The notes beneath the pieces are model-generated. The model saw only the letters and a list, made by a program, of their open reading frames with translations, ran no database searches and was not told where the DNA came from. This document shows positions 8,721 through 25,370 of a DNA stretch of 28,106 nt, in pieces. How positions within the stretch are numbered: position 1 is the stretch's first letter; each line of letters begins with the position of its first letter. Both the position numbers and the translations under genes were made by a program. This DNA is from Candidatus Methylomirabilis limnetica (GTDB lineage: Bacteria; Methylomirabilota; Methylomirabilia; Methylomirabilales; Methylomirabilaceae), in NCBI RefSeq assembly GCF_003044035.1, contig NZ_NVQC01000025.1, positions 1 through 28,106 on the forward strand, read 5' to 3'.

Positions 8721-8775
8721 GTAGGGGCGACCCTAGTGGTCGCCCAATCTGGGCAGGCACAAGGCCTGCCCCTAC
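8721..8775. repeat. Pair of REP-like hairpins (GGGCGACC-ctagt-GGTCGCCC; GGGCAGGC-acaa-GCCTGCCC) bracketed by GTAGGGG...CCCCTAC
   Basis: Perfect 8-bp stems read directly, inside the MFP-RND intergenic spacer. Confidence 0.8.
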
Positions 8776-8826
8776 AAAGGGAGGGTTAGGGAGTGCGGAG
8801 TGGAAAGTACGGTGCTGATCGCAACC

Positions 8827-8903
8827 TCAAACCTTGAACCTTGAACCTTGCACATTGAACTTTGAACTTTGAACCTCGAACGTTGAACTTTGAACCTTGA
8901 ACT
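8827..8903. repeat. Heptanucleotide tandem repeat (TTGAACY) x11
   Basis: tcaaacc ttgaacc ttgaacc ttgcaca ttgaact ttgaact ttgaacc tcgaacg ttgaact ttgaacc ttgaact. It ends 8 nt before the RND ATG. Confidence 0.9.
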
Positions 8904-8911
8904 GGTAGCCC

Positions 8912-11900
8912 ATGTCCTTAATTGAAATCTGCGTCAAGCGGCCTGTCTTTGCCACGATGCTGATCGTCTCCCTTGTCGTCATGGGGCTGGCGTCCTTCCG
9001 GGATTTGGGGCTCGATGTCTTCCCCAAGGTGGATATGCCCACCGTCACCATCACGACGAGACTCCCAGGGGCGAGCCCGGAGGAGATCGAGAGCAATATC
9101 ACGAAGCGGATCGAGGAAGCCGTAAACACGATCAACGGGATCGATGAGTTGCGATCCACCACCCTCGAGGGGCAGTCCCAGGTTTTCGTGACGTTTGTCC
9201 TGGAGCGTAAGATCGACGAGGCGGCTAACGACGTTCGGGAGAAGGTGGGAACGGTCGTCTCGGCGTTTCCCCATGGCACCGAGGCCCCGGCTATCGAGAA
9301 GTTCGACCCCGACTCTGCTCCAATCATGGCGATTGTCGTCTCCGGCAAGCGCTCGGCCCGCGAGATTACGGAGCTTGCCGACAAGAAGATCAAGCGGCAG
9401 CTCGAAACCGTCAAGGACATCGGGGCGGTCACCCTCGTCGGCGACCGGAAGCGAGAGATCCAGCTTGTCGTGGAGCCCCACCGCCTCGAGGCCTACAACC
9501 TCTCGATCCAACAGGTCAAGACGGCTGTCCAGCGCCAGAACGTTGAGGTCCCTGGAGGTAACATCACCTGGCAGACGCGGGAGCAGGGGCTCCGGACGCT
9601 GGGGCGGATCGAGCGGGCAGCCGACTGGAGCGACCTGATCGTGGCGGATTACAAGGGCGCCCCCGTCCGGATTCGAGACATCGGCTCCGCGCTGGACGGC
9701 GAAGAGGAACCGCGCACCCTTTCTCGCCTTGACGGCAAGAGCGCCGTTTCCCTCCTGGTCCAGAAGCAGTCCGGGACCAACACCGTGGCCGTGGTCGATC
9801 GGGTCAAGGCGAAGCTGCAAGAGATCAAAGCCAACCTGCCGCCTGATGTGGAGTTCCAGGTGGTGCGCGATGTATCGCGGTTCATCAAGCGCTCGATCGC
9901 GGAAGTGGAGGAGCACCTGATGCTGGGCGGGCTGCTGGCCAGCCTCATCGTGGCCTTCTTCATCGGGCGCCTCGTGCGGCGGGAGCAGGTCGTCCTGGGG
10001 GCGCTGCTTGGAGGCCTCACCCTGGCGTTCTTCCATGGCGATCCGGAGCTGTTGCGCGTCGTTGTGCTCTGGTCGATCGCTGTGACCCTGGTCCTCTTCC
10101 TCTTCATCCCGCGCCTTCGGCCCGCTTTCATCGCCGCGATCTCGATCCCGGTCTCGATCATCGCTACCTTTACCATCATGCGGGTGGCGGGCTTTACCCT
10201 GAACAATCTCACCATGCTTGGCCTCTCCCTCTCCACCGGGATCGTCATCGACGACGCCATCATTGTGCTGGAGAATATCTTCCGCCACATCGAGGAGGAA
10301 AGGCGTCTTCCGATGGAGGCGGCGGTGACCGGCGCCAAAGAGATTGTCCTGGCGGTTATGGCTACGACCCTCTCGCTAGTGGTTATCTTTCTCCCTGTTG
10401 CCTTCATGGGGGGGCTCGTCGGACGGTTCTGGAACAGCTTTGGTCTGACGGCCACCTTCGCCATCCTCGTCTCGCTACTCGTGGCGTTCACCCTGACTCC
10501 GATGCTCTCCGCTCGGATGCTGAAGCCTGTGATGAGCCCAGTCGAACCATCAGAGGACCTCGGCCAAGGCCATGGCGGACACCGACAGCACGATCAGGGA
10601 TCCAAGGCGACGCACGTCTATGCCTTTCTAGAGCGCAATTACGACGGGCTCCTCGTCTGGTGCCTGAATCACCGGGCTATTGTCCTGCTGCTGGCCGGTT
10701 CACTGTTGCTCTCAACCGTCCTCATCGGCAGGCAGATGAAGCTGGATTTCGTAGTCGATGACGACATGAGCGAATTCGAGGTTATCGTTGAGACGCCGCC
10801 CGGCTCCTCACTCGACCGGAGCGACGGGATCCTTCGGCGGCTTGAGGCCGATCTAAAGACCATCCCGGAGGTGGAGCATCTGTTCACCAGTATCGGGGTG
10901 CGAGGGAAGGACCGCGCCAACATCACCGACGCCTCGATCTATGTGGGGCTCACGCACCTGAGGGCGCGGACACGTTCGCAGCAGGCGATCATGCAGGAGG
11001 TCCGACAGATGTTCAGGGCCTACCCCGACCTGAGAATCAGCGCGCAACAGATCAGCCTGATCTCGGGGGGCGGCTTTAAGCAGACCCCATTCAATCTCGT
11101 GCTTCGTGGCCCGGATTTGCAGCAGCTAGATGGCTACGCCCAGGCCCTCATCAAGCGCCTCACTGCCATCCCTGGGTTCGTGGATGTGGACACCAGCCAG
11201 GCCCAGCGGCGGCCTGAGGTGCAGGTCCGGATCGATCGGCAGAAGGCATCGGACCTGGGGATCAGGGCGGAGGATGTCGCGCTCGCTCTCCGGACGATGG
11301 TGGGTGGGGAGAAGGTCGGTTTCTACCGGGAGGGAGGCGAGCAGTACGACGTCCGCCTGCGGCTTAAGGACGACTACCGAAAGGATGCGTCCGCCATATC
11401 GGCCCTGACGGTGCCGGCCGCTGCCAACCGGCTGGTCAAGCTGAACAATGTCGTCAGCCTGAATCCAGGACGGGCGCCGGCACAGATCGATCGCTATGCC
11501 CAGGAGCGACAGATCACGGTCCAGGCGAACCTCCACCAAATGGTGCTGGGGGAGGCGACCGCCCAGGCCGATGCGGCCATCAAAGCGGTAGGGATGTCTC
11601 CCGGCTACTCGACCGCGTACCTTGGCCGCGGCAAGTTGATGGCCGAGGCGTTCTACAACTTCGCGATCGCGTTTGTCCTCTCCATCATGTTCATCTACAT
11701 CGTCCTCGCAGCCCAGTTCGAGAGTTTCATCCACCCGATCACCATCATGGTTTCGATGTTTCTGTCGATTCCCTTCGGTCTTGTAAGCCTCCTGGCCGCA
11801 GGTCAGACCCTGAATATCTATAGCGTCATGGGGTTGTTCCTTCTCATGGGAGTCGTTAAGAAGAATGCCATCCTCCAGGTGGACTTTACGAATGTGCTCC

Positions 11901-12325
11901 GCGCGCGCGGCAAGCCCCGATACGAGGCGCAACTGGAGGCCGACCGGGCGCGGCTTCGGCCGATCCTCATGACGACGCTCGCCATCATTGCTGGAATGTT
12001 GCCGGTCGCCTTAGGCAAGGGCGACGGCTCCGCCTCCAGGGCCTCACTCGCCACCGCCGTGGTCGGCGGCCAGACCCTCTGCCTCTTAATAACGCTACTG
12101 GTGACTCCGGTCGTCTACTCGTACTTCGACGATCTCCGCGGGCTTCGGATCGTCTCGTGGTTATATGAGGTTCGCCTGTGGGCATGGTTGCGGGCGAAGC
12201 CTGCTCCTGGCCTCTCCCCTCACCCCGACCCTCTCCCCAGAGAGGAGAGGGGACTCAACCATAACCTCCTCTCCCCCGTGGGGGAGAGGATAAAGGTGAG
12301 GGGGCAACGGGACGGGTCAGGGTAG
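8912..12325 (+). CDS. RND efflux transporter permease (AcrB/HAE1-like) with an atypical TM insertion and a repeat-derived C-terminal tail
   Basis: 1137-aa ORF. AcrB-like blocks include IDDAIIVLENI, the porter-domain pattern, and a second TM bundle with GVVKKNAILQVDF. The C-terminal ~40 aa are translated from hairpin repeats. Confidence 0.9.
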   Translation: MSLIEICVKRPVFATMLIVSLVVMGLASFRDLGLDVFPKVDMPTVTITTRLPGASPEEIESNITKRIEEAVNTINGIDELRSTTLEGQSQVFVTFVLERKIDEAANDVREKVGTVVSAFPHGTEAPAIEKFDPDSAPIMAIVVSGKRSAREITELADKKIKRQLETVKDIGAVTLVGDRKREIQLVVEPHRLEAYNLSIQQVKTAVQRQNVEVPGGNITWQTREQGLRTLGRIERAADWSDLIVADYKGAPVRIRDIGSALDGEEEPRTLSRLDGKSAVSLLVQKQSGTNTVAVVDRVKAKLQEIKANLPPDVEFQVVRDVSRFIKRSIAEVEEHLMLGGLLASLIVAFFIGRLVRREQVVLGALLGGLTLAFFHGDPELLRVVVLWSIAVTLVLFLFIPRLRPAFIAAISIPVSIIATFTIMRVAGFTLNNLTMLGLSLSTGIVIDDAIIVLENIFRHIEEERRLPMEAAVTGAKEIVLAVMATTLSLVVIFLPVAFMGGLVGRFWNSFGLTATFAILVSLLVAFTLTPMLSARMLKPVMSPVEPSEDLGQGHGGHRQHDQGSKATHVYAFLERNYDGLLVWCLNHRAIVLLLAGSLLLSTVLIGRQMKLDFVVDDDMSEFEVIVETPPGSSLDRSDGILRRLEADLKTIPEVEHLFTSIGVRGKDRANITDASIYVGLTHLRARTRSQQAIMQEVRQMFRAYPDLRISAQQISLISGGGFKQTPFNLVLRGPDLQQLDGYAQALIKRLTAIPGFVDVDTSQAQRRPEVQVRIDRQKASDLGIRAEDVALALRTMVGGEKVGFYREGGEQYDVRLRLKDDYRKDASAISALTVPAAANRLVKLNNVVSLNPGRAPAQIDRYAQERQITVQANLHQMVLGEATAQADAAIKAVGMSPGYSTAYLGRGKLMAEAFYNFAIAFVLSIMFIYIVLAAQFESFIHPITIMVSMFLSIPFGLVSLLAAGQTLNIYSVMGLFLLMGVVKKNAILQVDFTNVLRARGKPRYEAQLEADRARLRPILMTTLAIIAGMLPVALGKGDGSASRASLATAVVGGQTLCLLITLLVTPVVYSYFDDLRGLRIVSWLYEVRLWAWLRAKPAPGLSPHPDPLPREERGLNHNLLSPVGERIKVRGQRDGSG
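12211..12301. repeat. Two G/C hairpin repeats (CCCTCTCC..GGAGAGGG; CCTCTCCCCC-gtg-GGGGGAGAGG)
   Basis: Palindromes read directly. They lie inside the 3' end of the RND ORF and encode LSPHPDPLPREERG..LLSPVGERIKVRG. Confidence 0.75.
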
Positions 12326-12358: not shown

Positions 12359-12640
12359 ATGGAACTGACGCGGCGGCAGGAGATCATGACGATGCTCCGG
12401 GAGGGCGAGTGGACGTTGGACGAGCTGGCCATGAACTTCGTGGTGTCAAAAAAGGTGATCATCGATGACCTCGAGCATATCGCCCGCTCTGTCCCAAGGC
12501 CCTCTCGCCTCCAGATCCATCCCCCAACCTGCGAGGTGTGCGGCTATCGCTTCAAGGACCGGGCGAAGTACAACGATCCTTCCCGGTGCCCAATGTGCAA
12601 AAACGAACACCTTCGCTCCCAACGATTCCAGATCGTCTGA
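12359..12640 (+). CDS. Small transcriptional regulator: HTH domain fused to a C-terminal Zn-ribbon (COG3357-like)
   Basis: 93 aa. The N-terminal winged-helix-like segment is RRQEIMTMLREGEWTLDELA. Two CxxC pairs (CEVCG, CPMCK) form the ribbon. Confidence 0.7.
   Translation: MELTRRQEIMTMLREGEWTLDELAMNFVVSKKVIIDDLEHIARSVPRPSRLQIHPPTCEVCGYRFKDRAKYNDPSRCPMCKNEHLRSQRFQIV
12469..12583 (+). repeat. 115-bp direct repeat, copy 1 (inside the HTH/Zn-ribbon gene)
   Basis: 113 of 115 nt are identical to 23783-23897 (counted by hand). The mismatches are tac/ttc and aac/aat. Confidence 0.95.
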
Positions 12641-13628: not shown

Positions 13629-14051
13629 TTACAGTTTGGACCTCCTCCCCCCTTGAGGGGGAGGATTGAGGTGGGGGGTCAAGACTTGTCGGATCTCCTC
13701 CACGACCGAAACGGGATGGCGTAACAGATCGTGGTCCCAAAACCGAACGACACGATATCCATGGCTCTGCAACCAGCCGGTCCGTTCCGTATCGTAGTTG
13801 AGCTGTGCCGCATGCTGCCCTCCATCCACTTCAACGATCAGTTTGCGTTCCAAACAGGCGAAATCCACAATGTACGGGCCCATCGGGTGCTGCCGCCGAA
13901 AACGATACCCGTCAATCTGCCGTAGCCGGATGCGACGCCACAGAGCCCTTTCGGCATCCGGAGGATCCTTCCTGAGAACGCGAGCCCTTCTGCTCACCCC
14001 CCCATCCTCACCTTCCCCCTCGCAGGGGGGAAGGGACACATCCACCAACAC
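13629..14051 (-). CDS. DUF559 (Vsr-like) endonuclease domain protein
   Basis: RARVLRKDPPDAERALWRRIR...GYRFRRQHPMGPYIVDFACLERKLIVEVDGGQH...RTGWLQSHGYRVVRFW is the DUF559 signature. Both ORF ends run into G/C hairpin repeats (13641-13678 and 13995-14039), so the true start may be internal. Confidence 0.8.
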   Translation of the reverse strand: MLVDVSLPPCEGEGEDGGVSRRARVLRKDPPDAERALWRRIRLRQIDGYRFRRQHPMGPYIVDFACLERKLIVEVDGGQHAAQLNYDTERTGWLQSHGYRVVRFWDHDLLRHPVSVVEEIRQVLTPHLNPPPQGGRRSKL

Positions 14052-14262: not shown

Positions 14263-14484
14263 TGTCAGGGGACGATGCGGATCATCAGTGTCATCGAGGA
14301 CCCGTCGGTGATCCGGGACCTCCTCAATCATCTGGGACTCTGGCCGGCAAGCACAAGACCACCACCAAAAGCTCACGCCACACCAATCTGGGAATACGCC
14401 GCTTGCGATCTCCAACTTCAAACACACGCTGAGACTATCTACGGCGACCCCGACTACACCTGGGATGAAGACAGACAGCCATAA
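14263..14484 (+). pseudogene. IS91-family (Y2 rolling-circle) transposase C-terminal fragment, copy A
   Basis: KCQGTMRIISVIEDPSVIRDLLNHLGLW..RPPP...DPDYTWDED resembles the Zn-finger tail and extreme C-terminus of IS91-family transposases, as I recall them. It abuts the ISL3 fragment with no intervening start. Confidence 0.55.
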
Positions 14485-14596
14485 CGCATTGTGAAACAAA
14501 GGCGTGCAGGAGAGGTCTGTCTGTATTGTGCTCACAAATGCCCTCTTGCCGGGTGACTCGACCACAAGATGAGCTGATTTCTCAAAAGAGCGGTCC
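14290..14596 (+). repeat. ~305-bp direct repeat, copy A (IS91-like 3' coding end plus ~110 nt downstream)
   Basis: Aligns colinearly with 16256-16560, at roughly four-fifths identity by eye. Confidence 0.85.
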
Positions 14597-14657
14597 CCGA
14601 TCCACCTTCCTTACCCAACCGCATCGCCAGCCCCTGTTTTTCGATGCACAATATCTG

Positions 14658-14686
14658 TTGACAAGCAACAACAGCCTTCCTATACT
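14658..14686 (+). promoter_or_regulatory. Sigma70-type promoter, module copy A: TTGACA-17 nt-TATACT
   Basis: Hexamers and spacer were counted directly. It lies 144 nt upstream of the GGDEF-PilZ ATG and is part of the triplicated module 14618-14745. Confidence 0.6.
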
Positions 14687-14829
14687 TCCAGCCATCGAAA
14701 GCAATGCCTTATCAAAATAAATAAATCAAACAAACAAACAAACAATGTTACGCTCACCAGGCTGCCCGCTTGATAGGGGCGACCGCCACCCCTTTCGTTA
14801 AACGCGCACCCGCAGGAAGCTTAGTCTTT

Positions 14830-16014
14830 ATGGAGAATTTAACCGAGTTCGAAGCTTTCAAAGATCGCGTCATCTCGCTAGTGTCAGAGGACTCGCTCAA
14901 CCGGAAATTCCTCACTGAGCAGATCAACGAAATTTTCCTCCAGCGCGTCGATGGCTGCCTCTATTCCCGGCTTCTGGCGCTCTTCGTCCACTTGGACTTT
15001 GATGAAGCCGAGGCCCAGCGCCACTGGGTGAGCATACTCGATAATTACAACTACTTTCATGAGGTACTGCGGCGCAAGGTGGGGCTGCGGGTGGCGATGT
15101 TTGACTACTTTCTCAATAGTAATCAGCTCCTCCAGAACCCGATCCTCGTCGAAATCCATCTGTTCCAGCAGGCCACCTTTATGGCCATGCAAGACCACCT
15201 CACCAATCTCTTCAACCGCCGCTATTTCGATATCGCCCTGGAAAAGGAAATCAAGCGCTCCGCGCGCTGGCAAACAGATTTCTCGTTACTGATGATCGAC
15301 CTGGATAATTTCAAACAGGTCAACGACGTGCACGGCCACCTCTTCGGGGATAAGGTGCTCAAGGATCTCGCCGCAGTGCTGAAACAGCTCAGCCGGGAAG
15401 AAGATACCGTCTGCCGCTACGGGGGCGAAGAGTTTATCGTCTTGCTGCCGGGCACCACCGCGAGCGGCGCGCTTCACTACGGGGAGCGGGTGCGGGCCGC
15501 CTTGGCAGAAAACGATTTTTTGTATCGCCATCACATCACCTTCAGTGGCGGGATCGCCACCTTTCCCGCCGATGGCAGCGAGGCGGTGACCTTGCTCAAG
15601 GGTGCCGATGTCTCGCTTTATCAAGCCAAGTTTTCCGGAAAAGATTGCATCGTCAAAAGTTCCCAGGAACGTCGCCATGGCAAACGCCATCCCCAAACCT
15701 GGCAGATCAGCTACCAGCCGCTGGAGCAGACCTTCACCACCCCTGAGATTCACGAGGCTTACGCTCAGGACGTCTCACTCGGCGGCGTCAGATTTGAAAT
15801 GGCGCAAGTGTTTTCCCTGGACGACAAATTATTGCTCCACATCAAGCTCCCCGAGCTTCAGGGCGTCATCGTTGTCGGGAAGGTCGCCTGGATCCGAAAA
15901 CTGGAGTCGAACCGCTACGAATATGGCCTGCAGTTTCACGATCTGAAAGCCGAGCAGGTGGAAAATTTTAAAAAGGCTTTACCTGGAGGCGAAGCTTCCA
16001 TTCCAGATTTTTGA
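14830..16014 (+). CDS. Diguanylate cyclase (GGDEF) with intact I-site, fused to a C-terminal PilZ domain
   Basis: GGEEF at 15421-15435, preceded by RxxD (REED, from 15394). The guanine-specifying D is present (HLFGDKVL). The PilZ motifs RRHGKR (15670-15687) and DVSLGG (15769-15786) are both present. The start is taken at MENLTEF; the track start 14770 is a TTG. Confidence 0.9.
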   Translation: MENLTEFEAFKDRVISLVSEDSLNRKFLTEQINEIFLQRVDGCLYSRLLALFVHLDFDEAEAQRHWVSILDNYNYFHEVLRRKVGLRVAMFDYFLNSNQLLQNPILVEIHLFQQATFMAMQDHLTNLFNRRYFDIALEKEIKRSARWQTDFSLLMIDLDNFKQVNDVHGHLFGDKVLKDLAAVLKQLSREEDTVCRYGGEEFIVLLPGTTASGALHYGERVRAALAENDFLYRHHITFSGGIATFPADGSEAVTLLKGADVSLYQAKFSGKDCIVKSSQERRHGKRHPQTWQISYQPLEQTFTTPEIHEAYAQDVSLGGVRFEMAQVFSLDDKLLLHIKLPELQGVIVVGKVAWIRKLESNRYEYGLQFHDLKAEQVENFKKALPGGEASIPDF

Positions 16015-16129
16015 GCTACATGCGCGGCCAACAACCGCAGTGCGTCCTCTGCTTTTTTCTAACCACTTTTCTCATTGTATATTTAATTAACTGATGCGTT
16101 CATTTCGTTAAGGGTCGATACCCCGCGGC

Positions 16130-16449
16130 TTGCCGCGTCCGTGTGATCTCGATATGGCAGAAGGTGTACTCCTGGCTTCGTATGCAACTCATCCGTCTGC
16201 CCTGAAGGTATGCGGCCAGCGCCGTTGGATACCCATCAGCTTGCCGCGGGGAGGCGTCATCAAGGACCCGTCGGTGATCCGGGTTCTCCTCACTCCTCTG
16301 GGACTTTGGCTGGCAAGCGTAAGACCGCCACCACACGCTCACGCCCCGCCATCCGGGACTACACCGCTGTCGATCGAAAGCTTCACACGCATGTGGAGAC
16401 TCTCTACGGCGACCCCGACTACACCCGGGATGAAGACATGCAGTCGTGA
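16130..16449 (+). pseudogene. IS91-family transposase C-terminal fragment, copy B (disrupted)
   Basis: ..VCGQRRW..VIKDPSVIRVLLTPLGLWLASVRPPP is followed, in a shifted frame, by ETLYGDPDYTRDEDMQS. It is homologous to copy A at the nucleotide level. Confidence 0.5.
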
Positions 16450-16560
16450 CGCATCGTGAAACACAGGCGTGCAGGAGAGGCCTGTCTGCATGGCGCTCAT
16501 AAATGCCCTCTTACCGGGTGATTAGACCACAAGATGAGCTTATTACTTAAAAGAGCAGTC
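16256..16560 (+). repeat. ~305-bp direct repeat, copy B
   Basis: Colinear with 14290-14596. Confidence 0.85.
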
Positions 16561-16633
16561 ATATACATCTATCTTAGCAAAAATCATCGTAATATACTGC
16601 GATTAGATGTATAATATCATTGCACAATGATTA

Positions 16634-16662
16634 CTGATAGAAACAAACAGCCTTACTATACC
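16634..16662 (+). promoter_or_regulatory. Module copy B, promoter-like: CTGATA-17 nt-TATACC
   Basis: This is a degenerate version of copies A and C at the homologous position. A perfect TATAAT also occurs at 16610-16615. Confidence 0.35.
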
Positions 16663-16790
16663 CTAGCCAGCAAATGTAATACATTATCAATACACCACAA
16701 TCATAAAAATCAAATCAAAGGTCAGGTTAGCTTGAGAATGTCCGCTCAATAGGGGTAGAATAAAGACCCAGTTGAGAGGAGGCAAGAGGC

Positions 16791-17215
16791 ATGGTTGAAG
16801 GCAAGAAGCGAATGACGGCAACGCGGAAGCTGGAGGTATACATAGAGATGTGCTGGAAGAACGCCAACGCGGGAGAGATCCTGCGGCGGTATTGGCTCCA
16901 CCTGAACGACCTCCGGCGGATCGAGATGTTGGTGGAGCTGGCAGCCCTTACGGCGCTCAATGGGAGCCGCCGAAGGCCTGGGGCAGATCCCCAGGCGGAC
17001 AGAGAATATGCCTAACTCGCGGCAGAGCTGGCGCAAACGGAGAATACTCTGGCCGAGTTGACCGTGGAGTACACCCTGCGCAAAAAAAGCGAGCGCTCGG
17101 GTTGGAAGGGTTCCTCGATGGCATCTACCTCCATAGCGGAGTGCGGGAGGCGCTGATCATGGCGACCAAGGACGCCATCGCGGGCGGGTTGACCGAGCGG
17201 GCGGGTAGAGGTTAT
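16791..17215 (+). pseudogene. IS3-family OrfA-like (HTH) transposase remnant with internal stop and frameshift
   Basis: GEILRRYWLHLNDLRRIEMLVELAALTAL then stop, then AELAQTENTLAELTVEYTLRKK and GVREALIMATKDAIAGGLTERAG in other frames. It is GC-rich and ends exactly where the AT-rich DNA begins. Confidence 0.5.
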
Positions 17216-17239
17216 GCCTCTGAGCTTTTACAGGAGGAA

Positions 17240-19153
17240 ATGAAATTGACCGTCGATAACCCTCTATATAATAGTAGGGTAATAGATACCTATATAAAGT
17301 TTGTTAAACAAAAATATGATTACGTAAATATCAGTGAATTATTAAGCTACGCAAAGATTGAGTCATATCAGGTTATAGACGAAGGCCACTGGTTTACTCA
17401 GAAACAGATAGACCTGTTTTATGAAAGGCTGGAAAAGCTAACTAAAAATAAAAACATAGCAAGGGAAGCTGGAAGATACGCGGCATCATCCGAGTCCCTG
17501 GGAGTAATGAGACAGTATATGTTGGGGTTTGTTGGCCCTGCAAAAGCTTATCAACTAATAGGAAAATATGCCCCTAAATTGGCCAAATCGTCAATTTATG
17601 AATCAAAAATAAAAACCTCTAATGGAATTGAAATTACTGTCACGCCGCTAAAAGGCGTCCACGAAAAACAATTTCAATGTGATAACAGAATCGGGTATTT
17701 TGAAGCCATTGCCTTAGCATTTAACTATAGTCTCCCTGAAATCAGACATCCTGAATGTGTCTTCAAGGGTGGGAAAGTTTGTCATTATATTATTTCATGG
17801 AAACAATCGTATTTCTCCTTCTGTAAAAAAATCAGAAATTATGCTGCCCTGTTTTTTCTCGCCGTAAGTCTCGGTGCTTCTTTCATGTATTCTTTGTCTA
17901 CGCTGATAACAATTGTACCATTTTCTGTTTTTGTTGTTCTTTCATTAACTCTCTATGCTGCAATTATCGAAAAAAAGGAATTAAATACAGCCATAGACAA
18001 CCTCAAGGTTTCGTCCGATGAGCTCATGGAACAGGTTGACGTAAATTATAACAATTCCCTAATGCTAAGTGAAATTGCACTATCTCTTAGCAAACAAATG
18101 GACATCGATATCATTTTATCTAATGCTATGAAAGTCTTGGAGGTCCGCCTTTGTTATGATCGTGGCGTGATTCTTTTAACAAATGAAGACAAGTCCCTGT
18201 TATTATTCCGCGCAGGTTTTGGTTATACTCCCGAGCAATTAAACGTTTTGAAGAACACTCAGTTTCACTTAAATATGACTGAGTCAAAGGGGCTGTTTGT
18301 TGTCTCTTTTCGTGAAAAGAAACCATTTTTAATAAATGATTTACAAGAGATAGAGGCCCACCTTTCATCTCACAGCCTGGAATTTGCAAAAAAAATGGGG
18401 GCATTATCCTTTATCTGTTGTCCAATAATCTACGAAGGAGAGTCCCTGGGAATTCTTGCCGTAGACAATACAAAGACAAAAAAACCGTTGGTCCAGAGTG
18501 ATATTAGTTTGCTTATGGGCGTTGCGCCTGAAATTGGGATGAGCATTCATAACTGCTTACTCCTGGAAGCCAAAGAACGACAATTTGAATCGATAATACA
18601 CGTCTTAGCGGCTAGCATTGATGCTCGAGACCCACTGACAGCAGGTCATTCCGAAAAGGTTACAGAATACGCCATGGGAATATGTCACGAATTAGACATA
18701 CCGAAGGAAGACCGAGAAATCATTCGTATTGCCTCATCACTGCATGATTATGGCAAGATAGGTATTAAAGATTCTATCTTAATGAAACCAGGCAAACTGG
18801 ATCCAGAAGAGCGTAAGGCAATAGAAACTCATGCGGACAAAACCAAGAAAATATTGGAACGGGTACACTTTGAAGGCGTTTATGGGGAGATTCCTAATAT
18901 TGCGGGATCACACCATGAAAAAATTGATGGCAGTGGTTACCCAAAGGGACAGAAGGGAGAAGATATTCCTCTGGGTGCTAGGATAATTGGTGTAGCTGAC
19001 TTTTTCGAAGCTATAACAGCAAAACGTCATTACAGGGACCCGATGCCCATCGATGTAGCGTTTCAACTACTCAATGAGGAGGTAGGAAAAAGTTATGACA
19101 AAAATATTGTTGATGCTTTTATTAGATATTATAACGGGAGGTTAAAGACTTAA
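17240..19153 (+). CDS. Membrane-anchored sensor protein: unknown N-terminal domain, 2 TM helices, GAF, HD-GYP c-di-GMP phosphodiesterase
   Basis: HD..HDYGKIGI..HHEKIDGSGYPKG motifs. The GAF-like block is SEIALSL...GILAVDN. The TM pair is YAALFFLAVSLGASF / IVPFSVFVVLSLTLYAAII. The start is taken at the ATG after AGGAGG; TTG 17246 is an alternative. The track ORF start 16850 fuses the IS3 remnant in frame. Confidence 0.85.
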   Translation: MKLTVDNPLYNSRVIDTYIKFVKQKYDYVNISELLSYAKIESYQVIDEGHWFTQKQIDLFYERLEKLTKNKNIAREAGRYAASSESLGVMRQYMLGFVGPAKAYQLIGKYAPKLAKSSIYESKIKTSNGIEITVTPLKGVHEKQFQCDNRIGYFEAIALAFNYSLPEIRHPECVFKGGKVCHYIISWKQSYFSFCKKIRNYAALFFLAVSLGASFMYSLSTLITIVPFSVFVVLSLTLYAAIIEKKELNTAIDNLKVSSDELMEQVDVNYNNSLMLSEIALSLSKQMDIDIILSNAMKVLEVRLCYDRGVILLTNEDKSLLLFRAGFGYTPEQLNVLKNTQFHLNMTESKGLFVVSFREKKPFLINDLQEIEAHLSSHSLEFAKKMGALSFICCPIIYEGESLGILAVDNTKTKKPLVQSDISLLMGVAPEIGMSIHNCLLLEAKERQFESIIHVLAASIDARDPLTAGHSEKVTEYAMGICHELDIPKEDREIIRIASSLHDYGKIGIKDSILMKPGKLDPEERKAIETHADKTKKILERVHFEGVYGEIPNIAGSHHEKIDGSGYPKGQKGEDIPLGARIIGVADFFEAITAKRHYRDPMPIDVAFQLLNEEVGKSYDKNIVDAFIRYYNGRLKT

Positions 19154-19175
19154 TCAAATAGTTGACAGATTTAAA

Positions 19176-19976
19176 TCAAGCAACAGGCTTACGTCCCCTG
19201 CAACAAATTACTGGCGTGTAAGTAAATCTTCTCGGATCGATAAAAAATCTATTAAATTCCCCTAAAAACTCTTCGTATCCTCCATCATATTCTTCAAAAT
19301 TGAAATTTACCTTCTTTGAGATAACTTCAAACTTCTTTGTCCAGTTGTAGGCATCAATGTCGTTTAATTCCCCAAATATCAGGTGATGAGCGGTAACATC
19401 CATGTTTATATCCTGATAGCCAAGATCATACAGGAAAGAATAAAGTTTTCTCCCTACATACGGATCGAAGTCTGCATTTTCCTCTAAATATTTTATAACG
19501 GCAAAAATGGTTCTTTCCAGCCTTGGTGAAATGCCAAAATGGCTTAAACAATTATGGTCTAAATCAACCAGGCACAAAATACCACCTGGCTTTATAAGCT
19601 TAGTTACATTTTTAACGATGTCAAAACTGCTAGAAAGGTAATACTCTAAAGCAAAACGCATCCAGACAAAGTCAAACATCTCCTCACCGCCAAGGGACTT
19701 TCGTATATCTCTACGCCTAAATGTTATCCCTTTATCGTTATAGCGTTCTTTAGCATATTCAATTCTCTTTTCTGAACCATCGAATCCGATTGCCACTCCA
19801 CCAGGTTGAACTAATTTATGTAATATAGAAGTTACTTTTCCTGAACCACAGCACATATCAGCAACGTGCATACCTGGCTTAATACCAGCCCAAAGAGCTT
19901 GCTGCTCAACAACTCTACTATTTGTTTTAATATCCAGACGGAAAGCCTCTTCTTCATTTTCCATTAAGTATTCCAT
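19176..19976 (-). CDS. Class I SAM-dependent methyltransferase
   Basis: Motif I VADMCCGSGKV, an acidic loop GFDGSE, and motif IV-like LIKPGGILCLVD. The substrate cannot be inferred. Confidence 0.8.
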   Translation of the reverse strand: MEYLMENEEEAFRLDIKTNSRVVEQQALWAGIKPGMHVADMCCGSGKVTSILHKLVQPGGVAIGFDGSEKRIEYAKERYNDKGITFRRRDIRKSLGGEEMFDFVWMRFALEYYLSSSFDIVKNVTKLIKPGGILCLVDLDHNCLSHFGISPRLERTIFAVIKYLEENADFDPYVGRKLYSFLYDLGYQDINMDVTAHHLIFGELNDIDAYNWTKKFEVISKKVNFNFEEYDGGYEEFLGEFNRFFIDPRRFTYTPVICCRGRKPVA

Positions 19977-20109
19977 AACCCCCCATCCTTTATGCTCTCA
20001 GGTGGTTTAGATCGATACCGGAAATATTTTTGTGATTATATCACTACTTACCATCCCCTGCTTTTCGATGTACAATATCTATACAAAATAATACCATGTA
20101 AAATAACTA

Positions 20110-20138
20110 TTGACAACTAAAAACAGCCTTACTACACT
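20110..20138 (+). promoter_or_regulatory. Sigma70-type promoter, module copy C: TTGACA-17 nt-TACACT
   Basis: Counted directly. It lies ~60 nt upstream of the ATG at 20199 and is part of the conserved module 20046-20190. Confidence 0.55.
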
Positions 20139-20198
20139 TAAAGCCATCAAAAGCAATGCCTTATCAAATAAAACAATCAACCCTGATCAGAGGTGGCA

Positions 20199-22382
20199 AT
20201 GGATAAACTCCAAAGAATTGCTAAGCTTTCCTACTATACCGACCCAGATAAGGGACTGGAAGAAAGAAAGAAGATCTCCAGAAAACGCCTAAGAAACACC
20301 CTGAACCATATTAATTTTCAAACTGGCACAATACTTATAAATTTCAAACACCTAAAGTATGATACTGTCCTATCTCTTCAAGCCAATCCACAGCCATGTC
20401 TTGAAAATAGTTTGGAATGTTTGTGGATTGAACCAGCAGGACTAAAACAGAAATTGAGTTCTTACAAATTTCTAAATTTTCTACTTACAGATGATCTAGC
20501 GCTTATTCTTGTTGAAGCTGCCTTAAAGGAAATAAGTGAGGAAGGAATTAGCTTCAGCCTCCCTGAAATTTGTTACGAGCTTAGCTATCGCAAGGTAAGA
20601 AGGCATTTATGCAAGGGTATTCAGGTTGATCTCATTCAAAACAGTGTAATATTTTACGGAACTCTTTTGAACTTTAGCGCTGTCTCGTTCTGTATAGAAG
20701 TATCAACTGAGCCATCCCAACCATTTCATTGGGTTAATCCTGAAGATACGGTATATGTTACATTCAAAAATAAACAGGATATCCTGTATTCAGGAGAATG
20801 CAGGATAATCCGACAAACGTATGGCCAAAAAAAGAGCGTCTTTATAGTAGAACCTGTAAACGATCAGATACGCAGATTTAAGACAAAAGAGTTTCGAAGC
20901 TCTCGACACAAATTATCACCCTCACCAAATATTAACTTTATACATCCTTTTACTCAGAAACTTATCAACATGGAAGTTGAAGATCTGACAGGTTCTGGTT
21001 TTTCTGTTGAGGAAGACATAGACAATGCTGTGCTTTTGGTCGGAATGATTATCCCGGAACTGTACATAGAAATAGGCTATGATTTTAAAATCAGATGCAA
21101 GTCCCAGGTTGTTAATAGAAATGTTCATACAGCCAACGATTGCAAAACTCTCGCGAAATGTGGAATGACCGTTTTAGATATGGACATCCAAGAACAAGTA
21201 AGACTTTCGAGTTATTTACAGCAGGCGGAAAATAAAAAGGCCTTTGTTTGCAACAGGGTGGACATAGATGCGCTGTGGAAGTTCTTTTTCGAGACAGGCT
21301 TTATCTATCCTAAAAAATATGCTCTTATGTCCGCTGACAAGGAAAAGTTTAAAGCAACTTATGAGAAGCTTTATGTCGAAAATCCCCATATAGCCAGACA
21401 TTTCGTATGCCAAGATAAAGGTATAATTCAAGCGCATGTATCGATAATCCGTTTTTATGAAGAGACATGGCTACTTCACAACCATGCCTCCCTCAGATCA
21501 GGACATGGCAATACCGGACTTGTTGTGATGAGGCAGGTTGAACGTTATATAAACGATTTTCACCGTCTCTATTCAGCACACATGAATTTTGTCGGTTGTT
21601 ATTTCAGACCAGATAATAAGTTTCCTATGCGTGTGTTTGGAGGGTGTGCCAGAGAAATCAATAATCCAAAGGCATGTTCCGTTGATTCCTTTGTCTATTT
21701 CTGTTTTCCAAGAGCTGGCACACAACCTGATCTACCGGAAGCATTGACATTAACTAAAACCCAGCCCGAAGACCTTTTAGAGCTGGAAACTTTTTATGAA
21801 TATGAATCCGGAGGTCTGATGCTTCAAGCCCTGGATTTAACGCCGGAAATGATTGATAATGATAATCTCAGTAAAGAATTTAACAAGCTTGGTTTCAAAA
21901 GGGAAAGGATTCTTTTTTCTTTGAAGAAAAATGATGTTCTAAGGGCAGTTATAGCGGTAAATGTCTCTGATATCGGCTTGAACCTGTCTAACCTGACGAA
22001 TTGCTTCCACGTTATTATCCTGGACGCTAAAGATCTCCCCGTTAACATAATTTATATCTGCCTCTCCATGCTATCAAAATATTATGAGCAGCAGGATGAA
22101 ATTCCTGTTTTATTGTATCCCGTTAGCTATGCGCAAAGCCACTCCGTAGCCTATGAAAAAATACATACCCTATGGATGTTGAATACACAATATGGTGATC
22201 AATACTTCAAATATATGGAGAATTTATTTCACCATAGGCATGATGATGAAGAGGCTCAATGTTCTATAGCTTACCCCGATATGGACGATACGAGAAGGCG
22301 GAGTGAGAAGCATGGGAGGTCGTTGCGCATTATCACTAAGGATGGGATTGACTCCCAACATGAAAACGAAGACGGACGCTAA
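20199..22382 (+). CDS. Large cytoplasmic protein: tandem degenerate PilZ-like domains plus an unrecognised ~390-aa C-terminal region
   Basis: Three motif pairs are visible: RKVRR(H) then NFSAVS 23 aa later (20589-20687); RSSRH then DLTGSG 26 aa later (20892-20999); and an N-terminal RKRLR with EISEEG. No TM helices or catalytic motifs were recognised. GAGG lies 5 nt before ATG 20199; the track start is GTG 20193. Confidence 0.5.
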   Translation: MDKLQRIAKLSYYTDPDKGLEERKKISRKRLRNTLNHINFQTGTILINFKHLKYDTVLSLQANPQPCLENSLECLWIEPAGLKQKLSSYKFLNFLLTDDLALILVEAALKEISEEGISFSLPEICYELSYRKVRRHLCKGIQVDLIQNSVIFYGTLLNFSAVSFCIEVSTEPSQPFHWVNPEDTVYVTFKNKQDILYSGECRIIRQTYGQKKSVFIVEPVNDQIRRFKTKEFRSSRHKLSPSPNINFIHPFTQKLINMEVEDLTGSGFSVEEDIDNAVLLVGMIIPELYIEIGYDFKIRCKSQVVNRNVHTANDCKTLAKCGMTVLDMDIQEQVRLSSYLQQAENKKAFVCNRVDIDALWKFFFETGFIYPKKYALMSADKEKFKATYEKLYVENPHIARHFVCQDKGIIQAHVSIIRFYEETWLLHNHASLRSGHGNTGLVVMRQVERYINDFHRLYSAHMNFVGCYFRPDNKFPMRVFGGCAREINNPKACSVDSFVYFCFPRAGTQPDLPEALTLTKTQPEDLLELETFYEYESGGLMLQALDLTPEMIDNDNLSKEFNKLGFKRERILFSLKKNDVLRAVIAVNVSDIGLNLSNLTNCFHVIILDAKDLPVNIIYICLSMLSKYYEQQDEIPVLLYPVSYAQSHSVAYEKIHTLWMLNTQYGDQYFKYMENLFHHRHDDEEAQCSIAYPDMDDTRRRSEKHGRSLRIITKDGIDSQHENEDGR

Positions 22383-22398
22383 GAGAGGGCGTTTTACT

Positions 22399-23697
22399 AT
22401 GAATCAAAAAGTATTATGGAGAGGAATAGCTGTTTATGTACTTATATTCTTTGTCTTTTGTACTACCTCAAATGCTTATGGCTCTGGCTTTGCAATCTTT
22501 ACACAGGGTGCATCGGCTTTAGGTCAGGCAGATGCTGTAATTGCGCACGCAGATGACCCCTCGGCGATTTTCTTCAATCCCGCATTGATTAATAAACTCG
22601 AAGGAACACAAATAGAACTAGGAACAACCCTGCTCTTCCCTTCGCAGGAATTTAAAAGTGCTGCAACGGGAAATTCATTTCGAACAGAAAGTCAGGTGTT
22701 TTACCCACCCACAGTTTTTGTTACCCATAAGTTCAATGATAAGATCAGCGCGGGTTTGGGTGTCTTTAGTCCTTTCGGACTAGGGATTAACTGGGGTAAT
22801 AGCTGGGAAGGAAGATACATAGCAACCGACTCAGAAATGATAACTTTTAATATCAATCCCGTAGTTTCATACAAGGTAACACCTGATTTTACATTTGCTG
22901 CAGGGGTGGATTTCCTTCTCCTTGACACAACGTTAAAAAAGAGTCTAAACCTGTCGGGCTTGGCGAGCGCTGTCCCTAGTCTTGGCCTTCCTGCCGGCCT
23001 TCCGGACGGTAGACAAAAATTTAAGGGTGATGGACATGGTGTTGGATATAATTTTGGAATTCTGTATGACGTCAATAAAGACATTTCGTTCGGCGCCTCA
23101 TACAGAAGCGAAATCAAAGTGGACATTGATGGTGATTCCACCTTTACTCTTCCGAGCCCCTCACTCGGAGCTCTATTTCCAAATACTTCCGGCAATTCAC
23201 ATATTACGCTTCCACGAGTAGTCCAGGCTGGCGTCGCTTACAAAGGTTTTAATCGACTGACGCTAGAAACTGGTATGAGATGGGAAGGCTGGTCATCATT
23301 CAAAGAATTAAGGATCAACCTCGATAAACCTGTTTTAGGCAGTACCACGTCCATCACAGAAAAAAACTGGCATGATACGTACTCTGCAAATCTTGGGGTA
23401 AAATATCAACTGAATGACACGGTTGCATTGCTTGCCGGATACTTATATGGAGGAAATCCAGTACCTGATAAGACATTTGACCCTATTGTCCCAGATGCGA
23501 CTACACACCTTTTCACCGTTGGAACAAATGTAAAATATAAGAACATGAGAATTGACCTATCATATGGTTATCAATTGCTGGAGGGGAGGAGTAAAAACAA
23601 TACGGTTGCTGATCCATTGAATCCTTTCAACAACGCCAACGGAAGGTATAATACAGATATTCATCTGTTCGGTATCAGTCTAACGTATAAAATATAG
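22399..23697 (+). CDS. Outer-membrane transport protein, OmpP1/FadL/TodX family
   Basis: Signal peptide [15 protein letters not shown], then [37 protein letters not shown] (the FadL-family N-terminal hatch signature) and an alternating beta-strand pattern. The start is taken at MNQKVLW, with an RBS-like AAGAGAGGG (22381-22389) 9 nt upstream. It begins 17 nt after the previous stop. Confidence 0.85.
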
Positions 23698-23730
23698 GCT
23701 CTTCTCCCAAACGAGTGGGTAGATTTTCAG
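23697..23730 (+). repeat. ISL3-like terminal sequence, copy 2 (GGCTCTTCTCCCAAACGAGTGGGTAGATTTTCAG)
   Basis: It starts on the last base of the OMP TAG stop and marks the AT-rich/GC-rich boundary. It is homologous to 13564-13597 in the same orientation. Confidence 0.45.
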
Positions 23731-24704
23731 TCTTTTTAGATCTCCGGGAGCATGCACGTAAGGATTTTCAGGCGCAGGTACTCCTCGAGCATATCGCCCG
23801 CTCTGTCCCAAGGCCCTCTCGCCTCCAGATCCATCCCCCAACCTGCGAGGTGTGCGGCTATCGCTTCAAGGACCGGGCGAAGTTCAATGATCCTTCCTAC
23901 GAGGTCTGCCGCCGCCTGAAACAGGAGCCGCCGACCCGCTTGATACCGATCGTCTTGCTCACGGCTCTAGCGGCGGAAGAAGCCCGGATCCGAGGGATCG
24001 AGGCGGGGGCTGATGACTTCATCACAAAGCCGTTCAGTCGGGCGGAGTTGAAGGCCCGCGTCCGCTCGCTGCTCAGGCTCAAGAAGTTTACCGACGAGTT
24101 GGAGCACGCCGAGGCCATGTTGCTCGCGCTGGGCCGAACCGTAGAGGCAAAGGACCCGTACACCCAGGGACACTGCGAGCGACTGGCGGCCTACTCGGTC
24201 GCCCTTGGACGGAAGCTTGGCCTGCCACCGGAGGAGCTGACAGCCCTGGACAGAGGCGGGACCCTGCACGATCTGGGGAAGATTGGGATCCCGGATGCGA
24301 TTCTGTTGAAACCCAGCGGCCTCAGCGAGGTGGAGTGGGTGATCATGCGCGAGCATACGGTGATCGGCGAGCGAATCTGCCAGTCGCTACGATCATTACA
24401 GCGAGTTCTGCCGATCATCCGCCATCACCATGAGCGATGGGACGGGAGCGGTTACCCTGATGGCCTTGCGGGCGAGGCGATCCCTCTCACGGCGAGAATC
24501 CTGCAGGTCGCTAACATCTTCGATGCGCTGAGGTCCGCGCGACCATACAAGCCTGCCTGGTCGCTACAAACCGCGTGCGATACCCTGCGGGATGAGGTGG
24601 CACGCGGCTGGCGTGATCCAGGCGTGGCTGAGCCATTCATCGAGCTGGTCGAGCTGGGCGGGCTGTCGGAGGCCCCGGAGCCTGCCGGTGGAGCAGGGGT
24701 ATAA
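23715..24704 (+). CDS. Chimeric, N-terminally decapitated response regulator-HD-GYP (RpfG-like) protein
   Basis: Residues after the repeat junction start mid-receiver ([24 protein letters not shown]), so the phospho-acceptor Asp region is missing. The HD-GYP domain is intact ([22 protein letters not shown]). The 5' ~60 codons derive from the IR-like sequence plus the Zn-ribbon gene duplicate. Confidence 0.65.
23783..23897 (+). repeat. 115-bp direct repeat, copy 2
   Basis: 113 of 115 nt are identical to 12469-12583. Confidence 0.95.
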
Positions 24705-24827: not shown

Positions 24828-25370
24828 ATGGGGCTGGACGGTGCGGCGAGTCTCAAGCTGCCTCGGGAGGAGGGCGTGGTGACGGCCGCCCTCGAACAGT
24901 TTCGGGTTCAGGCGGACGCGAAGGGTGTGGCGCTTGCGCTGCGGCTGGAACAGGCGCCGGACAGCCTGGTGGCTGACCCGCTCCGCTTTAAGCAGATTCT
25001 GCACAACCTCTTAGGCAACGCCGTGAAATTCACCCCAGCGGGCGGTTCCATTACTGTCACTGCGAAGATAGTTTCGCGTTCACAACCCGAAACCCTAGAC
25101 CCTCAACCCTATACCCTCGACCCCGGTGATTTCGTAGAAATTACCGTCTCGGATACCGGCATCGGGATTAAGGCTGAGGATCTGGGTCGGCTCTTCCAAG
25201 AGTTTACACGGTTAGACAGTTCCTTCGCAAAGCCGCAGCAGGGGACTGGCCTGGGTCTTGCCATGGCCAAACGCCTGGTCGATCTCCACGGAGGGTCCGT
25301 GACCGCCACCTCTCCCGGAGAAGGTCAGGGAAGCACCTTCACTGTCACCTTGCCGCTGCGGCCGTCGTGA
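24828..25370 (+). pseudogene. Histidine kinase C-terminal fragment (HATPase_c only; H-box/DHp missing)
   Basis: N-box HNLLGNAVKFT, G1 DTGIGI and G2 GTGLGLAMAK are present. The frame is closed by a TAG at 24807, and no phospho-His region lies upstream. A 42-nt heptamer repeat sits in frame at 25082-25123. Confidence 0.7.

Follow-up and report, generated by a model that had tools for sequence, protein, structure and literature searches.

Here we describe a gene of Candidatus Methylomirabilis limnetica (phylum Methylomirabilota) that is located on a contig of 28,106 bp, analysed at its full length and referred to below as the window. The gene encodes a protein in which three PilZ-type beta-barrels precede a two-lobed GNAT fold, and is therefore called the PilZ-GNAT gene. 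We favour, with moderate confidence, the reading that the product is a cytoplasmic receptor-enzyme for cyclic di-GMP (c-di-GMP), with three PilZ-type barrels mounted on a tandem GNAT, and that it forms the output of a mobile four-gene cassette, which in this genome occupies a Brocadiaceae-like island running on host promoters.

The PilZ-GNAT gene is an uninterrupted open reading frame (ORF) on the forward strand that may start at GTG 20193 (729 amino acids, aa) or at ATG 20199 (727 aa) and ends with TAA at 22380-22382. Since ATG 20199 is preceded at a distance of 3-4 nucleotides (nt) by the Shine-Dalgarno-like GAGGTGG and the homologues start with MD.L, it is the likely start, and the product most likely has 727 aa. 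A preliminary description of this DNA had identified the ORF 20199-22382 correctly and had assigned it 729 aa, a length that fits the GTG start. A database entry of Ca. M. limnetica, named 'pilus assembly protein PilZ' by NCBI, matches the protein at 100% identity. The FadL/TodX gene, which starts at ATG 22399, follows directly, as had been described; the spacer behind the PilZ-GNAT stop codon measures 16 nt rather than the reported 17, contains GAGAGGG, and no terminator-like site was found between the two genes in a terminator scan.

A full-length model of the protein was obtained with AlphaFold2 from a 41-sequence alignment (mean predicted local distance difference test score (pLDDT) 79.3; predicted template-modelling score (pTM) 0.70). 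Conservation figures refer to 245 near-full-length members with identities down to ~32%. In the model, residues 22-346 form three beta-rich modules (Table 1). The second lacks the C-terminal helix of PilZ domains and is xPilZ-like in that respect, and the third consists of six strands and a helix at 330-344. When the full-length model was compared with the PDB using Foldseek, two classes of match were obtained at probability 1.00, namely tandem GNATs and YcgR-type receptors; the latter comprised MrkH (5kec/5kgo), MotI/DgrA, PlzA, YcgR and PP4397, including 5vx6, 7mie, 5y6f and 3kyf (E 1e-8 to 5e-6). Residues 1-225 were also modelled alone in order to exclude module 3 (pLDDT 78.7). This shorter model matched VCA0042/PlzD at E=6.5e-7 over 211 columns, as well as PP4397, MrkH, YcgR and MotI, and was aligned over 198-222 columns with 2rde, 3kyf, 5ejl, 5kgo, 5y6f and 5vx6 (E 6.5e-7 to 4e-5). 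The isolated PilZ domains of BcsA, MapZ, Alg44 and CeSA (4i86) were matched over 90-105 columns with a root-mean-square deviation (rmsd) of 3.4-4.3 Å and a template-modelling score (TMt) of 0.5-0.58, c-di-GMP-bound domains being among the single PilZ domains found.

In these models, modules 1 and 2 resemble the xPilZ-PilZ unit of the YcgR-like framework that Galperin and Chou set out (bioRxiv 10.1101/814665). Fold matches to receptors of this type spanned 200-220 columns at E 6.5e-7 to 1e-4. As in the YcgR-like receptors YcgR, MotI/DgrA, PlzD/VCA0042, PP4397, MrkH and PlzA, a divergent barrel without C-terminal helix is followed by a PilZ barrel, and an RxxxR motif lies in the linker between them: R131xxxR135 stands between the end of barrel 1 (128) and the start of barrel 2 (142). 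Those receptors, however, are stand-alone adaptors of ~210-250 aa that bind partners or DNA, whereas the window protein bears three barrels on an enzyme-like body, and its motifs deviate from theirs (RxxR in module 3, DxSxxS in module 2). PilZ barrels were thus present within residues 1-340, where the preliminary description had expected tandem PilZ-like domains, but as three barrels instead of two or three loose pairs of motifs.

The motifs of modules 2 and 3 are well conserved in the family. Module 2 has a canonical RxxxR (R131 93%, R135 95%) followed by N158xS160xxS163, in which D or N occurs at 158 in 85% of members, S160 in 70% and S163 in 67%; position 163 is S, A or G in 67, 16 and 7%, respectively. 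In module 3 the arginine region (R226 90%, K230 76%, R233 92%, R236 98%) contains R233xxR236, one residue short of RxxxR, and the second motif has the family consensus D262xS264xxG267 (84, 89 and 97%), the window copy having T264. Pfam PilZ was found in 27 of the 41 homologues (E<=0.1, best 1.9e-8) and was located on module 3. Five of eight homologues that were scanned singly (P0059, P0069, P0086, P0090 and P0110; 25.5-35 bits) exceeded the PF07238 gathering score of 22.5 bits, P0130 matched profile positions 2-100 at 21.2 bits, slightly under that threshold, and P0202 had a weak Pfam PilZ match on module 2.

Both pairs that the preliminary description had reported with PilZ-like spacing are present in the window protein, namely R131KVRR135 with N158FSAVS163 and R233SSRH with D262LTGSG267. 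They exceed chance, since a loose pattern (R-x2-3-R, 18-32 aa, then [DN]x[ST]xx[GSA]) gave 2 matches against 0.09-0.10 expected in 2000 shuffles (P about 0.003). The further statement that all motifs deviate requires correction for R131KVRR135, which is a canonical RxxxR, and holds for the complete strict pattern (RxxxR then [DN]xSxxG), of which the window protein has 0 matches. The looser third pair, RKRLR/EISEEG, was rejected as a binding site: the basic cluster of module 1 is moderately conserved and EISEEG poorly so (S113 34%, G116 71%).

For the C-terminal half, in which no nameable motif had been seen, Pfam and NCBIfam indeed gave no match, and a sequence search of the PDB, with the single protein and with the 41-sequence profile, returned none either, so that no well-characterised family was matched. 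This half is truly unrecognised by sequence models. In the structure model, residues 347-680 are a tandem GNAT fold, both lobes having the element order alpha1-alpha2-beta2-beta3-beta4-alpha3-beta5-alpha4-beta6, and the vague two-lobed GNAT flavour noted earlier was borne out by the fold search. The best match was the glucosamine N-acetyltransferase of C. acetobutylicum, 5kf1 (E=1.3e-8), and Legionella VipF (6wqc/7wx7), Sphaerobacter 3tt2, M. abscessus MAB_4324, the clavulanate-pathway enzyme 2wpw, a histidine acetyltransferase, 7q3a, 9en3 and many N-myristoyltransferases were also found. The alignments covered 340-400 columns at E 1e-8 to 3e-5 and 7-13% identity.

Lobe 1 keeps a beta4-loop-alpha3 of the right length, which is variable save for G440 (97%) at the N-terminus of alpha3, and further contains the stretch N473xxPxxxF480GG; we take these two elements to recall degenerate coenzyme A (CoA)-binding elements (GNAT motifs A and B). 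In lobe 2, beta4' is not followed by a glycine loop; this lobe carries the highly conserved loop G593xN595xS597xL599. A real active site is favoured because many polar residues of both lobes are at least 90% conserved (H413, R418, H428, N473, S494, D496 and D525, and further Y533, S537, R568, N595, S597, K654 and Y656). The two-lobed fold and the beta4-loop-alpha3 with its conserved glycine in lobe 1 are shared with the tandem-GNAT acyl-CoA transferases (5kf1, VipF, MAB_4324, 2wpw and the N-myristoyltransferases); none of these solved enzymes, unlike the window protein, has a nucleotide-receptor domain.

The fusion belongs to a large, hitherto unnamed and uncharacterised but widespread family. 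At least 1459 clusters at 90% identity and 968 clusters at 50% identity were found, and the 338 of the latter with E<=1e-30 are nearly all full-length (660-720 aa), aligning over residues ~20-680 down to ~32% identity. The phylogenetic distribution of the fusion, which had been proposed for examination, extends to at least 447 species genomes, a relative being encoded in 447 of 500 pattern-matched stretches from GTDB species representatives. Among the best 80 of these stretches were Planctomycetota (Brocadia and relatives), Nitrospirota (Thermodesulfovibrionales, Nitrospira-like), Desulfobacterota (Geobacteraceae, Desulfobacterales, Syntrophobacter) and further hosts such as Nitrospinaceae and Sulfurimonas and Hippea bins. 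Because the relatives are full-length across divergent lineages, the joining of PilZ array and GNAT is of old standing and stable. The C-terminal ~45 residues of the window protein, which are predicted to be disordered, are shared by its nearest relatives only. A kinase-fused variant of ~1210 aa with N-terminal NERD and Ser/Thr protein-kinase domains was seen in two independent representatives (P0111, encoded at 7001-10630 of locus L089, and P0130), and it retains the HD-GYP, methyltransferase and FadL genes downstream. Literature searches on anammox and PilZ revealed no description of the family or of the four-gene cassette, and for the combination of a triple PilZ-type array, a Pfam-invisible tandem GNAT and a conserved neighbourhood no description was found in the literature.

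Three partner genes accompany the family; the preliminary description had registered neither this four-gene cassette nor the island on which it lies in the window. In the 36 well-flanked loci (6 kb or more to either side), the HD-GYP gene was present in 30 (83%), the methyltransferase gene in 28 (78%) and the FadL gene in 18 (50%), and no other ORF family occurred in more than 9; ORF clustering over 86 loci and the window found no family beyond the four of the cassette in more than 14 loci. The canonical order, PilZ-GNAT, GAF-HD-GYP, opposite-strand methyltransferase and FadL/TodX, was seen in Kuenenia, Ca. Wujingus (Brocadiaceae), Geobacteraceae and many others, and the cassette is retained across Planctomycetota, Nitrospirota, Desulfobacterota and others. 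In the window the order is permuted to HD-GYP, methyltransferase, PilZ-GNAT and FadL. The coordinates of all features are listed in Table 1.

Table 1. Features of the window that bear on the PilZ-GNAT gene
Feature	Position	Strand	Basis
PilZ-GNAT gene, 727-aa xPilZ-PilZ-PilZ-tandem-GNAT protein	20199..22382 (including stop)	+	ORF, database match
Module 1, aa 22-128, PilZ-related beta-barrel (xPilZ / PilZN-like), N-terminal helix	20262..20582	+	models, fold alignment, column frequencies
Module 2, aa 129-222, PilZ barrel without C-terminal helix	20583..20864	+	motif conservation, fold matches
Module 3, aa 223-346, PilZ barrel with C-terminal helix 330-344	20865..21236	+	Pfam PF07238 in homologues, conservation
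GNAT-like lobe 1, aa 347-520, candidate acyl-CoA-binding lobe	21237..21758	+	fold matches, conservation on secondary structure
GNAT-like lobe 2, aa 521-680	21759..22238	+	model, fold matches, conservation
Disordered C-terminal tail, aa 681-727	22239..22379	+	pLDDT 25-33; only closest relatives have it
GAF-HD-GYP phosphodiesterase, Arabinose_bd/V4R-like sensor, ~2 transmembrane segments	17162..19153	+	Pfam HD_5 1.3e-38, GAF 3.4e-11
Class I S-adenosylmethionine (SAM)-dependent methyltransferase	19176..19976	-	Pfam Methyltransf_31/25/11
FadL/TodX outer-membrane channel	22399..23697	+	Pfam Toluene_X E=3.2e-70, NCBIfam FadL 3.1e-35
Low-GC island with the four cassette genes	17250..23750		34-46% GC vs ~60% contig
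Promoter-like module copy C (TTGACA 20110-20115, 17-nt spacer, TACACT 20133-20138)	20096..20176	+	repeat families D4, D6; copy alignment
GGDEF-PilZ diguanylate cyclase, behind copy A	14770..16014	+	Pfam GGDEF 6e-44, PilZ 8.9e-12

The HD-GYP partner has intact HD and GYP motifs, as read from its translation, and about two membrane segments are predicted from its sequence. Its N-terminal sensor of ~230 aa (window 17162-17850) gave no Pfam match in the window copy, while among 18 members Arabinose_bd was matched in 8 (1.4e-7) and V4R in 4, both of which are small-molecule-binding sensor folds. Residues C174, H197, E199, C200 and C208 of the sensor are invariant, with the spacing C-x22-H-x2-C-x7-C. 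We take the arrangement of C174, H197, C200 and C208 to recall the zinc site of the phenol sensors MopR/DmpR, which a profile search of the PDB did not confirm: searches with the single sequence and with the profile gave a spurious coiled-coil match only and did not recover MopR, DmpR or PoxR. The closest solved relatives of the methyltransferase are of the small-molecule type (3mgg, juvenile-hormone-acid O-methyltransferase, CouO).

At 11 loci, in Kuenenia and some Desulfobacterota, a gene for a B12-binding radical SAM protein was observed between the methyltransferase and FadL genes (for example 14087-15454 of L001 and 15481-16848 of L002). This optional fifth member of the cassette hints at small-molecule chemistry.

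Two described proteins combine related parts. PixB (MXAN_2604) of Myxococcus xanthus consists of two PilZ domains and a GNAT, binds c-di-GMP although both PilZ domains deviate in the second motif, and works together with the Frz system in motility and development; it cannot function without its acetyltransferase domain, the substrate of which is unknown (PMC8316039). As in the window protein, PilZ-type modules stand N-terminal to a GNAT-superfamily transferase in one polypeptide. PixB, however, has a single GNAT, assigned by domain annotation, in contrast to the two-lobed tandem GNAT of the window family that lacks a Pfam match, and its RxxxR arginines (R121 and R331) lie 210 residues apart, compared with ~100 (R131/R233) in the window protein, which has an extra N-terminal xPilZ barrel. 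The window family is moreover set apart by its HD-GYP, methyltransferase and FadL cassette and by its mostly anaerobic, non-myxobacterial lineages. Motif spacing and GNAT number argue indirectly against orthology with PixB, the two having been compared by description.

In Caulobacter crescentus, c-di-GMP governs both the activity and the localisation of HfsK (CC3689), a FemX-like tandem GNAT with no known substrate. HfsK is switched off by c-di-GMP without a PilZ domain; the nucleotide is bound by arginines in a C-terminal extension of 25 residues and by a surface arginine (PMC5362036). HfsK is a two-lobed GNAT N-acyltransferase and in this resembles the window protein, but it has no PilZ domain and is linked to holdfast polysaccharide genes, unlike the window family. 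Few c-di-GMP effectors have a covalent modification as their output; two precedents, PixB and HfsK, were found, and both anticipate the logic proposed here. The PilZ-GNAT family adds a larger, phylogenetically broad and syntenic system, and its context narrows the search for substrate and signal, so that c-di-GMP-controlled acylation becomes experimentally approachable through the cassette. The family also defines a tandem GNAT that escapes Pfam and an arrangement of three PilZ barrels, which its current database label misdescribes. Of the two outcomes that had been named as refuting the designation as a candidate novel c-di-GMP effector, an absence of PilZ barrels from residues 1-340 and a match to a well-characterised family, neither was obtained; the designation is supported, its novelty being tempered by PixB, HfsK and the PilZ label at NCBI.

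The folds, the conservation of the motifs, the linkage of the cassette and the structure of the island were observed; the binding of the ligand, catalysis, the direction of regulation and the class of substrate are inferred. In the receptor-enzyme reading, c-di-GMP would bind to the arginine-rich linkers and DxSxx(G/S) strands of module 2, module 3 or both, and binding would re-pack the barrels and the module-3 helix onto GNAT lobe 1. This would switch acyl transfer on or off, the donor most likely being acyl-CoA in lobe 1 and the acceptor lying between the lobes. The membrane-anchored HD-GYP phosphodiesterase, with its V4R/Arabinose_bd-like sensor and GAF domain, would lower c-di-GMP, the FadL/TodX channel would pass a hydrophobic compound across the outer membrane, and the small-molecule-type methyltransferase would act in the same pathway. 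The input of the cassette is probably a hydrophobic small molecule, as the FadL/TodX channel and the phosphodiesterase's V4R-like sensor suggest.

A tentative extension of this, which we regard as possible but doubtful, is that the cassette is a self-contained, horizontally mobile pathway of a hitherto undescribed kind: a lipid-like or aromatic compound entering through FadL/TodX would be sensed by the V4R-like HD-GYP protein, the local c-di-GMP level would be reset, and the PilZ-GNAT protein and the methyltransferase would acylate and methylate a small hydrophobic molecule, which could be the imported compound or an envelope lipid. If true, this would be the first direct c-di-GMP gating of small-molecule or lipid tailoring chemistry, at work in anammox bacteria, relatives of Geobacter, sulfate reducers and Nitrospirota.

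The four cassette genes lie on an island of 38% GC within surrounding DNA of 60%. The same island, at 87-92% identity and with its gene blocks rearranged, is present in an independent contig binned as the archaeon Ca. Methanoperedens (NZ_FZMP01000132.1, here L007), the high-GC flanks of which are homologous to those of the window. A chimeric assembly as the source of the GC jump was rejected, since high-GC DNA stands on both sides and the island recurs with homologous flanks in L007. Because these flanks are Methylomirabilis-like, L007 is probably a mis-binned Methylomirabilis-like contig, and Methanoperedens was rejected as its true host. A 1.8-kb contig binned as Methylovulum (L011, 83%) is possibly another mis-binning and is too short to judge. 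A third locus, L087, has a uniform GC content of 39% and a Brocadiaceae-type neighbourhood; since its nucleotide identity is 90% to the PilZ-GNAT gene and 86% to the HD-GYP gene, it points to a Brocadiaceae-like planctomycete as the source of a recent transfer. Nucleotide homology to L087 (blastn) starts at 20165 and ends at 22283.

The PilZ-GNAT gene was described earlier as lying behind the third copy of a repeated module, and this was confirmed: three promoter-like copies of ~80-110 nt are present, copy A at 14644-14724, copy B at 16621-16700 and copy C, a repeat of ~80 nt, at 20096-20176. They precede the GGDEF-PilZ cyclase gene, the GAF-HD-GYP gene and the PilZ-GNAT gene, respectively, and share the consensus TTGACA-N17-TAtACT followed by a conserved AGCCATCAAAAGCAATGCCTTATCAA stretch. 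The promoter-like site of copy C lies ~60 nt upstream of the ATG and is the best sigma-70-like site in 19900-23900 (10 of 12 matches); copy C falls almost wholly outside the L087 homology. Among the loci compared, the module was detected in the window only, with no copy found in L007 or L087. Its conserved transcribed part may act as a common 5' leader or as a regulatory RNA. Direct repeats of ~300 nt, 83-85% identical, were also found at 14290-14595 and 16256-16560, directly upstream of copies A and B; since they adjoin these copies, the duplicated unit is larger than the promoter module.

The cyclase behind copy A has an intact GGEEF with an RxxD I-site five residues upstream and a canonical PilZ domain (RxxxR, DxSxxG), and is a putative host-side source of c-di-GMP outside the conserved cassette. 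Its 3' part also adjoins the island in L007, where 9535-10192 corresponds to window 15469-16132. As the module copies precede the cyclase, HD-GYP and PilZ-GNAT genes, the writer, the eraser and the reader of c-di-GMP appear to stand under a single common promoter module in the M. limnetica genome. The island is evidence of the inter-phylum transfer of a complete second-messenger module into an NC10 methanotroph, followed by its re-wiring to host promoters.

Several observations weigh against the receptor-enzyme reading. The window protein, whole or divided into modules, falls under every Pfam and NCBIfam threshold up to E<=10. Comparisons with hhalign among the three modules, between the two lobes, and between each module and the canonical PilZ of the GGDEF-PilZ neighbour all stayed below 15% probability, the sole alignment being one of 13 columns between the DxSxxG-like strands of modules 2 and 3. 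Neither homology between the modules nor an internal duplication was seen at the level of sequence, and the case for modules 1 and 2 is one of fold and motif conservation. Module 3 has RxxR in place of RxxxR, module 2 has S at the motif-glycine position, the window copy has T264 in place of S, and sister clades carry R233Q, S264A and G267D in module 3. On the GNAT side, the TMt to the matched structures is moderate (0.35-0.51 overall; 0.44-0.51 with an rmsd of 8-9 Å for tandem GNATs), motif A (Q/RxxGxG/A) is not recognisable, G440 alone being conserved, and no GNAT hidden Markov model (Acetyltransf_*, FemAB, NMT) matches any of the 41 members. The window copy furthermore has H428N and Y656H at positions that are 96-97% conserved, and its ratio of nonsynonymous to synonymous substitution rates (dN/dS) is 0.35 against L007 and 0.50 against L087.

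The deviating motifs would also be explained if the barrels were degenerate or bound another nucleotide, such as 3'3'-cyclic GMP-AMP (3'3'-cGAMP), and served as interaction or localisation modules of a constitutive acyltransferase. No module has both canonical motifs, the window protein fails Pfam PilZ, and the module-3 motifs drift in the closest clades (264 being A or T). Many family members come from Geobacteraceae, and Geobacter-type bacteria use 3'3'-cGAMP. Motif arginines and D/S/G positions that are 84-98% conserved in 245 members would, however, be unexpected for dead sites; PixB binds its ligand despite deviations in motif 2 of both PilZ domains, and an HD-GYP phosphodiesterase is linked to the family in most of the well-flanked loci. 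We therefore judge this explanation unlikely. In the neighbouring planctomycete clade, too, the motifs of module 3 drift, those of module 2 being intact, and in this lineage the site in module 2 may be of greater importance.

In another alternative the tandem GNAT is a pseudo-enzyme or scaffold, and the protein acts as a c-di-GMP-dependent switch of the methyltransferase or of the HD-GYP enzyme in the manner of MapZ and CheR1. The methyltransferase gene belongs to the pair of neighbours that recur most constantly (51 of 63 loci with 3.2 kb or more downstream), the MapZ-CheR1 complexes 5xly and 5y4r are among the PilZ fold matches, and, in addition to the unrecognisable acyl-CoA motif A, the usual position of the general-acid Tyr in the motif-B-like stretch is F480. 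On the other hand, dense polar conservation in both lobes fits a catalytic or ligand pocket better than a scaffold, the methyltransferase is of a generic class I small-molecule type and not CheR-like, and the function of PixB is carried by its acetyltransferase domain, which makes such a scaffold quite unlikely.

The missing Q/RxxGxG/A would fit a donor other than CoA, as in an aminoacyl-tRNA-dependent transferase of the FemABX or MprF C-terminal type that aminoacylates a lipid or envelope precursor under the control of c-di-GMP. Such enzymes are also tandem GNATs, the c-di-GMP effector HfsK is FemX-like, and a context of FadL and a lipid-type methyltransferase is compatible with an envelope lipid. 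The top 50 fold matches of the window protein nevertheless contained no Fem- or MprF-type structure, all being acyl-CoA enzymes, and Pfam FemAB, DUF2156 and Acetyltransf_6 matched none of the 41 members; we hold this possibility to be highly improbable.

In this genome the gene could be a decaying passenger of a recently transferred island that has lost its ancestral function: the GC content of the island is un-ameliorated, the dN/dS values of 0.35-0.50 against the closest relatives exceed the 0.25 found between two planctomycete copies (the value against Wujingus being 0.31), H428N, Y656H and S264T fall on positions conserved at 89-97%, and neighbouring host genes are fragmented (a truncated receiver (REC)-HD-GYP chimera and a HATPase-only fragment). 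Against this, the ORF is intact over 727 codons and dN/dS is well below 1; among 106 columns conserved at 85% or more, 101 are kept, the differences being S264T, H428N, L444M, Y561F and Y656H. The cassette is intact in all four genes, the island is kept, rearranged, in a second related genome (L007), and a host-type promoter module has been placed before the PilZ-GNAT gene. Decay is therefore considered very unlikely. H428N is unique among close relatives, and S264T and Y656H are shared in the clade. The window copy is intact and constrained, yet because of H428N, Y656H and the dN/dS of 0.35-0.50 it may be functionally shifted or altered.

Further repeats and gene fragments were observed around the locus. 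A direct repeat of 115 nt (98% identity; 12469-12583 and 23783-23897) brackets ~11.3 kb that include the whole c-di-GMP locus. A chimeric ORF (23715-24704), whose 5' end is formed by the right copy, is composed of a copy of the small CxxC...CxxC ORF 12359-12640, a truncated receiver and an HD-GYP domain; the Response_reg match of this ORF is limited to profile positions 58-111 and thus truncated at the N-terminus. The chimeric ORF looks like a scar of insertion or rearrangement. Beside it, ORF 24828-25370 encodes HATPase_c only, a histidine-kinase fragment without sensor and dimerisation and histidine-phosphotransfer (DHp) domains, and together the two look like what is left of a host two-component locus after its disruption. 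Lastly, a 45-nt C-rich element with a GGGGG/CCCCC hairpin (CCCCC..GCAAGGGGGG) is present in three copies, at 6627-6671, 12208-12252 and 13990-14034, and looks like an intergenic repeat of the host genome resembling repetitive extragenic palindromic (REP) elements.

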